A DNA stretch of 64,000 nt from NCBI RefSeq assembly GCF_044324785.1, contig NZ_CP172127.1. One strand, written 5' to 3'. Numbering within the stretch: the first letter of the stretch is position 1; each line of letters starts with the position of its first letter. The notes beneath the pieces were generated by a model. The model worked only from the letters and a program-made list of their open reading frames with translations. It was not told the DNA's origin and ran no database searches. Positions 53,573 through 54,146 of the stretch are shown piece after piece. The stretch is from Escherichia coli. Lineage in GTDB: Bacteria; Pseudomonadota; Gammaproteobacteria; Enterobacterales; Enterobacteriaceae. Made by a program: the position numbers and the translations under genes.

Positions 53573-53633
53573 AATAAAATCTCAAACGCCCCGCGTTGCG
53601 GAGTCAATAAAATGAAGTAAAGGTTTATTGTTG

Positions 53634-54146
53634 TTAGCTGAGGCGTTGAGGGCCAGCACGGATGCCTTGCGCCTGGCTTATCCAGACGGGCGTGCTGAAT
53701 TTTGCTTGAGGGGTAAAATGCGCATAATCAATGCGATACCCCTTTTCAGACGGCGTGCCTTCCTGGGTCAACAGCGCGCTGAGCGTATCCAGTAATGCAA
53801 GATGTTGCGCCTGAAGAGGCAAAGATTCTTCAGCAACGGGCAGCGTTTGCGGTGCCATTGCGAAGGAAAGATGACGGATTACCGTGCGAATGGCATGTTG
53901 ATGCCAGTAATCAACGGAATAGTTCGAATTCGGGCGACGCGTGTTCGCTTCCAGCAAGGCCAATTGACCAAAGTTAACTTTGGCTGAAGGCTCGTGGTTG
54001 CGGGTTGTCGCTTTTGCGGGCGCGTTTGGTTCGGCGGCGTTGCTGAGCGCAGGCAAACCTAAACTCGCCGCGACCATCCCTAATAAGAGATGCGGCCAGA
54101 AGTAGCGTTTACCAAACTGTCGCCAGCGCGTCAGTATTCCACTCAC
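53634..54146 (-). CDS. secM: secretion monitor SecM (translation-arrest leader regulating secA)
   Basis: GTG start; [37 protein letters not shown]... ends with arrest sequence [17 protein letters not shown]; 170 aa; track ORF is over-extended. Confidence 0.93.
53649..53699 (-). other. SecM ribosome-arrest motif coding segment ([17 protein letters not shown])
   Basis: Exact match to the known arrest peptide (F-xxxx-WI-xxxx-GIRAGP), four codons before the stop. Confidence 0.9.

Follow-up and report, generated by a model that had tools for sequence, protein, structure and literature searches.

[quoted passage not shown] SecM also carries an N-terminal signal sequence (PMC10987492). The secM allele in the stretch of E. 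coli DNA analysed here (64,000 nucleotides, hereafter the window) raises the question of whether this unit is intact, and whether the features for which it had been singled out set it apart from K-12. The original prediction, namely an intact arrest peptide, a GTG start and a one-residue difference from K-12 at the C-terminus, is supported by our analysis, but its emphasis on the GTG and on the QRLS tail as oddities is not. We conclude that the window almost certainly carries the orthologous, intact secM–secA regulatory unit of the E. coli chromosome; gene and mechanism are already known, the allele is common, and nothing about it is new.

The secM gene and its setting

In translation, secM is a reading frame of 170 codons on the minus strand (53634..54146), a strand assignment that had not been given before, with a GTG start and a TAA stop (53636..53634). 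A spacer of 61 nt (53573..53633, minus strand) runs from the secM stop to the ATG of secA, the regulated gene, which occupies 50867..53572 on the same strand, encodes 901 amino acids and is annotated as secA both in K-12 and in identical DNA of E. coli N3. The length of the spacer had been predicted correctly; the further statement that the secA start lies within it needs amending, as the spacer contains the Shine-Dalgarno sequence while the ATG (53572..53570, minus strand) is just outside. We observed the gene order ftsZ-lpxC-secM-secA-mutT in the window, with secM and secA co-oriented and secM upstream, and the order ftsZ-lpxC-secM-secA is as in K-12.

The window protein scored 195.9 bits against the Pfam SecM family PF06558 (cut-off 25, E = 4e-58) and 231.2 bits against the NCBIfam equivalog NF002799 (cut-off 100), which aligned with residues 3–169, and it scored below the cut-offs of the models for small-type SecM. 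Codons 1–37 (54036..54146, minus strand) encode a putative N-terminal Sec signal sequence with the same amino acids as residues 1–37 of K-12 SecM, in which we take the signal sequence to extend over 37 residues; its 15-residue hydrophobic core is kept across 74 species in our sequence comparison. At the nucleotide level, the 574 nt of the secM region show 100% identity to E. coli N3, in which the gene carries the secM annotation (WP_000014320.1), and 98.3% to K-12, so that a chance match is not an issue. Identity to N3 was 100% across all 3574 nt compared (3.6 kb), and collinearity with K-12 97,851–162,505, in reversed orientation, extends through the whole window at 97–98.5% identity. Of 5426 complete E. 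coli genomes, 5424 carry this 574-nt locus as a single copy, annotated as secM every time.

The upstream boundary of the secM–secA unit is formed by the intrinsic terminator of lpxC (54298..54350, minus strand), a compound hairpin followed by U9 that comes right after this gene and folds at −30.3 kcal/mol (z = −6.1). A simple terminator scan overlooked this element because of its long loop, and it was found by separate folding. With a simple promoter scan, no match to the sigma-70 consensus was obtained upstream of secM; the sole site found by the scan, a sigma-70-like sequence at 53585–53557, was at chance level and was rejected. Between lpxC and secM, 7 of 230 nt are different in K-12, a divergence above that of the secM coding sequence.

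Arrest motif, stall site and junction helix

Re-translation placed the arrest motif, the 17 residues F150–P166, at 53649..53699 on the minus strand. All nine specified residues of F150xxxxWIxxxxGIRAGP166, as the motif is given in the literature (PMC10987492; PMC4737659), are matched in the window protein; the 51 nt that encode it are the same as in K-12, and no essential arrest residue is substituted. Exactly four codons follow, CAA CGC CTC AGC (QRLS), and then TAA, which bears out the earlier reading of an intact motif ending four codons before the stop. Ribosome arrest is reported to occur with Pro166-tRNA in the A site (PMC6340945), and the A-site codon at the stall would be CCT (53649..53651, minus strand). 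Three SecM chains in the Protein Data Bank, from structures of stalled ribosomes (9vvi/9xwo, 8qoa and 3jbv), match the window protein only up to residue 165 or 166. Because it lies past the stall site at Pro166, and because these matches end at 165 or 166, residue 170 is never part of the arrested chain.

The minimum-free-energy fold of the secM–secA junction predicts a stem-loop in which 53650–53637 are paired with 53594–53581, and thus codons 166–170 with the secA Shine-Dalgarno region. The 5' arm (CUCAACGCCUC-A-GC; 53637..53650, minus strand) begins with the second base of the Pro166 codon and ends with the last base of codon 170, and the 3' arm (GCGGGGCG-U-UUGAG; 53581..53594, minus strand) includes the Shine-Dalgarno core of secA, GAG (53581..53583, minus strand), which is located 8 nt upstream of the ATG. 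In each of the four haplotypes of the junction, which are compared below, the predicted pairing of this core is at least 98.7% (unpaired probability of 0.013 or less).

For comparison across species, one genome of each was scanned for the codon pattern of FxxxxWIxxxxGIRAGP, which returned 86 loci. One of these, in a Glaciimonas metagenome-assembled genome (L059), was a chance match with an in-frame stop, and the remaining readable loci encode Enterobacteriaceae SecM-type arrest peptides. Six loci (L003, L034, L052, L062, L066 and L085) were excluded from the junction set, since the secA-start pattern missed their start. The resulting 81 sequences, made up of 78 other species, K-12, E. coli N3 and the window, have spacers of 57–68 nt. 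Among the excluded loci, L066 (positions 707–835; NZ_JAALBX010000005.1, labelled Citrobacter freundii M-21) has a secM–secA spacer of about 180 nt instead of about 60, with an insertion of about 125 nt in the loop between the helix arms that is flanked by terminal inverted repeats (TATACCC...GGGTATA) and has a MITE-like look; its SecM and SecA sequences are nearer to Atlantibacter than to Citrobacter.

In a 79-sequence junction alignment (A2), the 13 helix pairs were standard pairs in 87.5% of cells (78 distinct sequences), as against 32–53% in controls in which the 3' partner was slid by 1–3 columns. The apical pairs that involve codon 170 (20-78 and 21-77) were present in about 70% of species. 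Compensatory change was seen in only 2 cells of the 79-sequence alignment, and column shuffles scored equally; covariation is thus uninformative for this helix and adds nothing to the conserved ability to pair. Coding constrains the 5' arm, and the Shine-Dalgarno sequence the 3' arm. The RNAalifold consensus of the 79-sequence junction alignment did not return the Shine-Dalgarno-sequestering helix. A 5-bp helix from RNAalifold, GGCGU/AUGCU, lying across the secA AUG at −2.6 kcal/mol, is weak and was treated as noise.

The arrest, its export-dependent release and the unmasking of the Shine-Dalgarno sequence are taken from the literature or inferred for the window allele, which by analogy would operate as follows. 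secM would be translated from its conserved GTG, and the N-terminal signal sequence would direct nascent SecM to the Sec translocon. With Gly165 in the P site and Pro166-tRNA in the A site, FxxxxWIxxxxGIRAGP in the exit tunnel would block peptide-bond formation, leaving the stalled ribosome on codons 166–170, the very codons that form the 5' arm of the helix with the secA Shine-Dalgarno region. In toeprint geometry, with Gly165 in the P site, a ribosome occupies about 15 nt beyond the P-site codon; this stretch coincides essentially with the entire 5' arm, and the helix should therefore be unable to form during the stall. The Shine-Dalgarno sequence would be kept free and secA translated, until an active translocon, by pulling on the chain, would release the stall, upon which the helix would reform and secA would fall back to its basal level.

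Differences from K-12 and their possible consequences

An 837-nt alignment, together with the b0097 translation, showed nine differences from K-12 in the secM coding sequence, of which eight are synonymous; the ninth, ACC to AGC at window position 53638, gives T170S, the sole amino-acid difference. Codon 170 (53637..53639, minus strand) is accordingly AGC (Ser) in the window and ACC (Thr) in K-12, and the original prediction was accurate, in that the C-terminus is QRLT in K-12 MG1655 and QRLS here. The only difference in the spacer is a single-nucleotide polymorphism at 53605 (minus strand), G in the window and A in K-12.

Alleles were counted by megablast with 55-nt queries carrying the polymorphism at their centre, each 28-nt seed spanning it, so that only the queried allele is retrieved. 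Ser170 was present in 2520 of 5424 complete E. coli genomes (about 46%), including O157:H7 PV15-279 and strain 042, and Thr170 in 2903; together the two alleles account for all but one (5423) of the 5424 genomes that carry the locus. The spacer G allele, counted with a query centred on that position, occurs in 688 of 5424 genomes, and the exact 88-nt haplotype that combines AGC with the spacer G in 604; most other Ser170 strains lack the spacer G of the window.

Could this combination be a regulatory variant, its longer helix lowering basal secA translation or shifting inducibility relative to the K-12-type junction? With AGC, the predicted helix gains two apical pairs (G-C and C-G), and with the spacer G, a small apical, inner hairpin gains one; with these three extra pairs the 101-nt junction reaches a minimum free energy of −17.4 kcal/mol in the window compared to −13.6 kcal/mol in K-12; furthermore, the pairing partner of AGC is present in about 70% of species. 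However, since the Shine-Dalgarno core stays almost fully paired in every haplotype, the relevant occupancy is unchanged, and no haplotype-dependent change in Shine-Dalgarno masking is predicted by folding. Ensemble energies of the four haplotypes lie between −19.4 and −16.1 kcal/mol, and the codon polymorphism alone moves them by only about 1 kcal/mol. About 30% of species also lack the two top pairs, and each codon-170 allele is present in roughly 50% of E. coli genomes, which is what a neutral lineage marker would show. We consider it very unlikely that the haplotype acts as a regulatory variant, and the wider idea that E. coli lineages could differ in basal or induced secA translation through tuning by the apical variants (AGC/ACC, spacer G/A) is a comparably long shot. 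If it were true, K-12, the basis of essentially all SecM work, would carry a derived, weaker-helix allele and not the ancestral state of the family.

Turning to the protein, the last residue is Ser in 74 of the 81 sequences, including those of E. albertii, Salmonella, Citrobacter, Klebsiella and Enterobacter, and the tail reads QRLS in 62. The last codon is AGC in 70 sequences, AGT in four, GGT in three, GTC in two and TGC in one, and is ACC only in K-12. With Ser in this position in 74 of 81 sequences, the comparison identifies Ser170 as the ancestral residue and family consensus, and the Thr of K-12 as a state derived within E. coli.

As residue 170 is the C-terminal residue of SecM, and as SecM is reported to be degraded rapidly by a tail-specific protease after export (PMC6340945), the choice between Ser and Thr might alter the fate of the exported protein through recognition by this periplasmic protease. 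The exchange from Thr to Ser is, however, conservative, and Gly, Val and Cys are tolerated at position 170 in other species, all of which makes such an effect highly improbable. To our knowledge, SecM has no function after export, and its half-life should not matter. We expect no functional change from T170S, which, together with the spacer polymorphism, alters only the apical pairs of the helix.

The coding sequence begins with GTG (54144..54146, minus strand), as had been stated, but this is no departure from K-12, since secM of K-12 MG1655 (NC_000913 107705..108217) likewise begins with this codon, at the identical position. The N-terminus could be read in 74 other Enterobacteriaceae species; in the alignment, 72 of these have GTG and two have TTG where the E. 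coli gene starts, and in 16 species a stop codon immediately precedes the aligned GTG. Its presence in 72 of 74 species makes the GTG start a conserved feature of secM, and the window is not peculiar in this respect.

There is practically no chance that the true product is instead the 221-residue reading frame that a mechanical list of open reading frames starts from a TTG (53634..54299), or a shorter form starting at Met24, given that the TTG at 54299 falls within the U-tract of the lpxC terminator, that the region upstream of the GTG is not conserved as protein and is cut off by a stop right before the aligned GTG in the 16 species mentioned, that the alignment with the NF002799 equivalog starts at residue 3 of the protein initiated at GTG, and that the K-12 and N3 annotations both begin at this same GTG. 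A revision of the secM start site was reportedly published by Sarker et al. in 2000 (cited in PMC6340945), and we counted it against alternative starts as well. The 221-residue TTG frame and four short plus-strand frames across the region were rejected, being without conservation or annotation support. The 170-residue protein initiated at GTG is retained as the product of secM.

Related systems and other features of the window

Among the closest known relatives of the window protein, SecM of E. coli N3 (WP_000014320.1) is identical in protein and DNA. K-12 SecM (b0097, NP_414639.2 / WP_000014321.1) has in common with it the locus between lpxC and secA, the GTG start, the length of 170 amino acids, the signal sequence, the arrest motif, the 61-nt spacer and the core of the Shine-Dalgarno-sequestering helix, and differs by T170S, the eight synonymous changes and the spacer A, the helix of the window having two additional predicted apical pairs. 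The long-type SecM proteins of other Enterobacteriaceae (among them Salmonella, Citrobacter, Klebsiella, Enterobacter and Buttiauxella) likewise show the GTG start, a 21-residue signal region, FxxxxWIxxxxGIRAGP, a four-residue tail that is mostly QRLS, a spacer of 57–68 nt and GGCGUUUGAG before the secA ATG, whereas they vary in the x positions of the motif as well as in the loop sequence and apical pairs of the helix. VemP, MifM, ApcA/ApdA/ApdP and the RAPP-like family follow the same logic: the nascent chain is one that is exported or inserted, and its stalling frees the Shine-Dalgarno sequence of a Sec or YidC component encoded downstream (PMC10987492); these proteins are unrelated to SecM in sequence, are not homologous to it, and are located upstream of other genes (secDF2, yidC2).

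By its sequence, then, the window would seem to hold a textbook regulatory element in working order on an E. coli chromosome, which in itself matters little. For annotators and for users of the SecM arrest peptide, it may be useful that the QRLT of K-12 is derived and QRLS the family consensus, and annotators may further note that the non-ATG start of secM, GTG, is conserved family-wide; neither point alters the accepted mechanism.

An Rfam scan of the whole window returned no family for the secM–secA leader and gave four matches elsewhere. On the minus strand, PssrA ('plasmid-encoded Shigella sRNA A') was matched at 56538–56627 with 105.5 bits, here in a chromosomal location at the ftsA 3' end and ftsZ leader, an area in which the antisense RNA StfZ is annotated on the opposite strand in K-12. 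Also on the minus strand, naRNA4, a REP-type element, lies between mutT and yacG at 50343–50420, with flanks that match K-12 twice, and STnc40 overlaps the secA 3' end at 50822–50891. The fourth match, tp2, is on the plus strand upstream of pdhR (38956–39069).

Several other parts of the window depart from K-12. Where K-12 has its yad fimbrial operon (yadN to yadC), the window (5196–12037) is strongly diverged, with 76% identity over yadN, the rest being without a megablast match to K-12, and flanks at 97% identity. At 23408–23412, the gcd–cueO interval lacks about 158 nt of K-12 sequence (138,677–138,834), and at 34204–34235 about 30 nt stand in place of about 147 nt of aceF–lpd intergenic DNA (K-12 127,736–127,882). 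Finally, near panC and the rpnC 3' end, the window carries a direct repeat of about 230 nt with a spacing of 332 nt and 82% identity (13957–14550), the counterpart of which is present as a single copy in K-12 (147,747–147,861).
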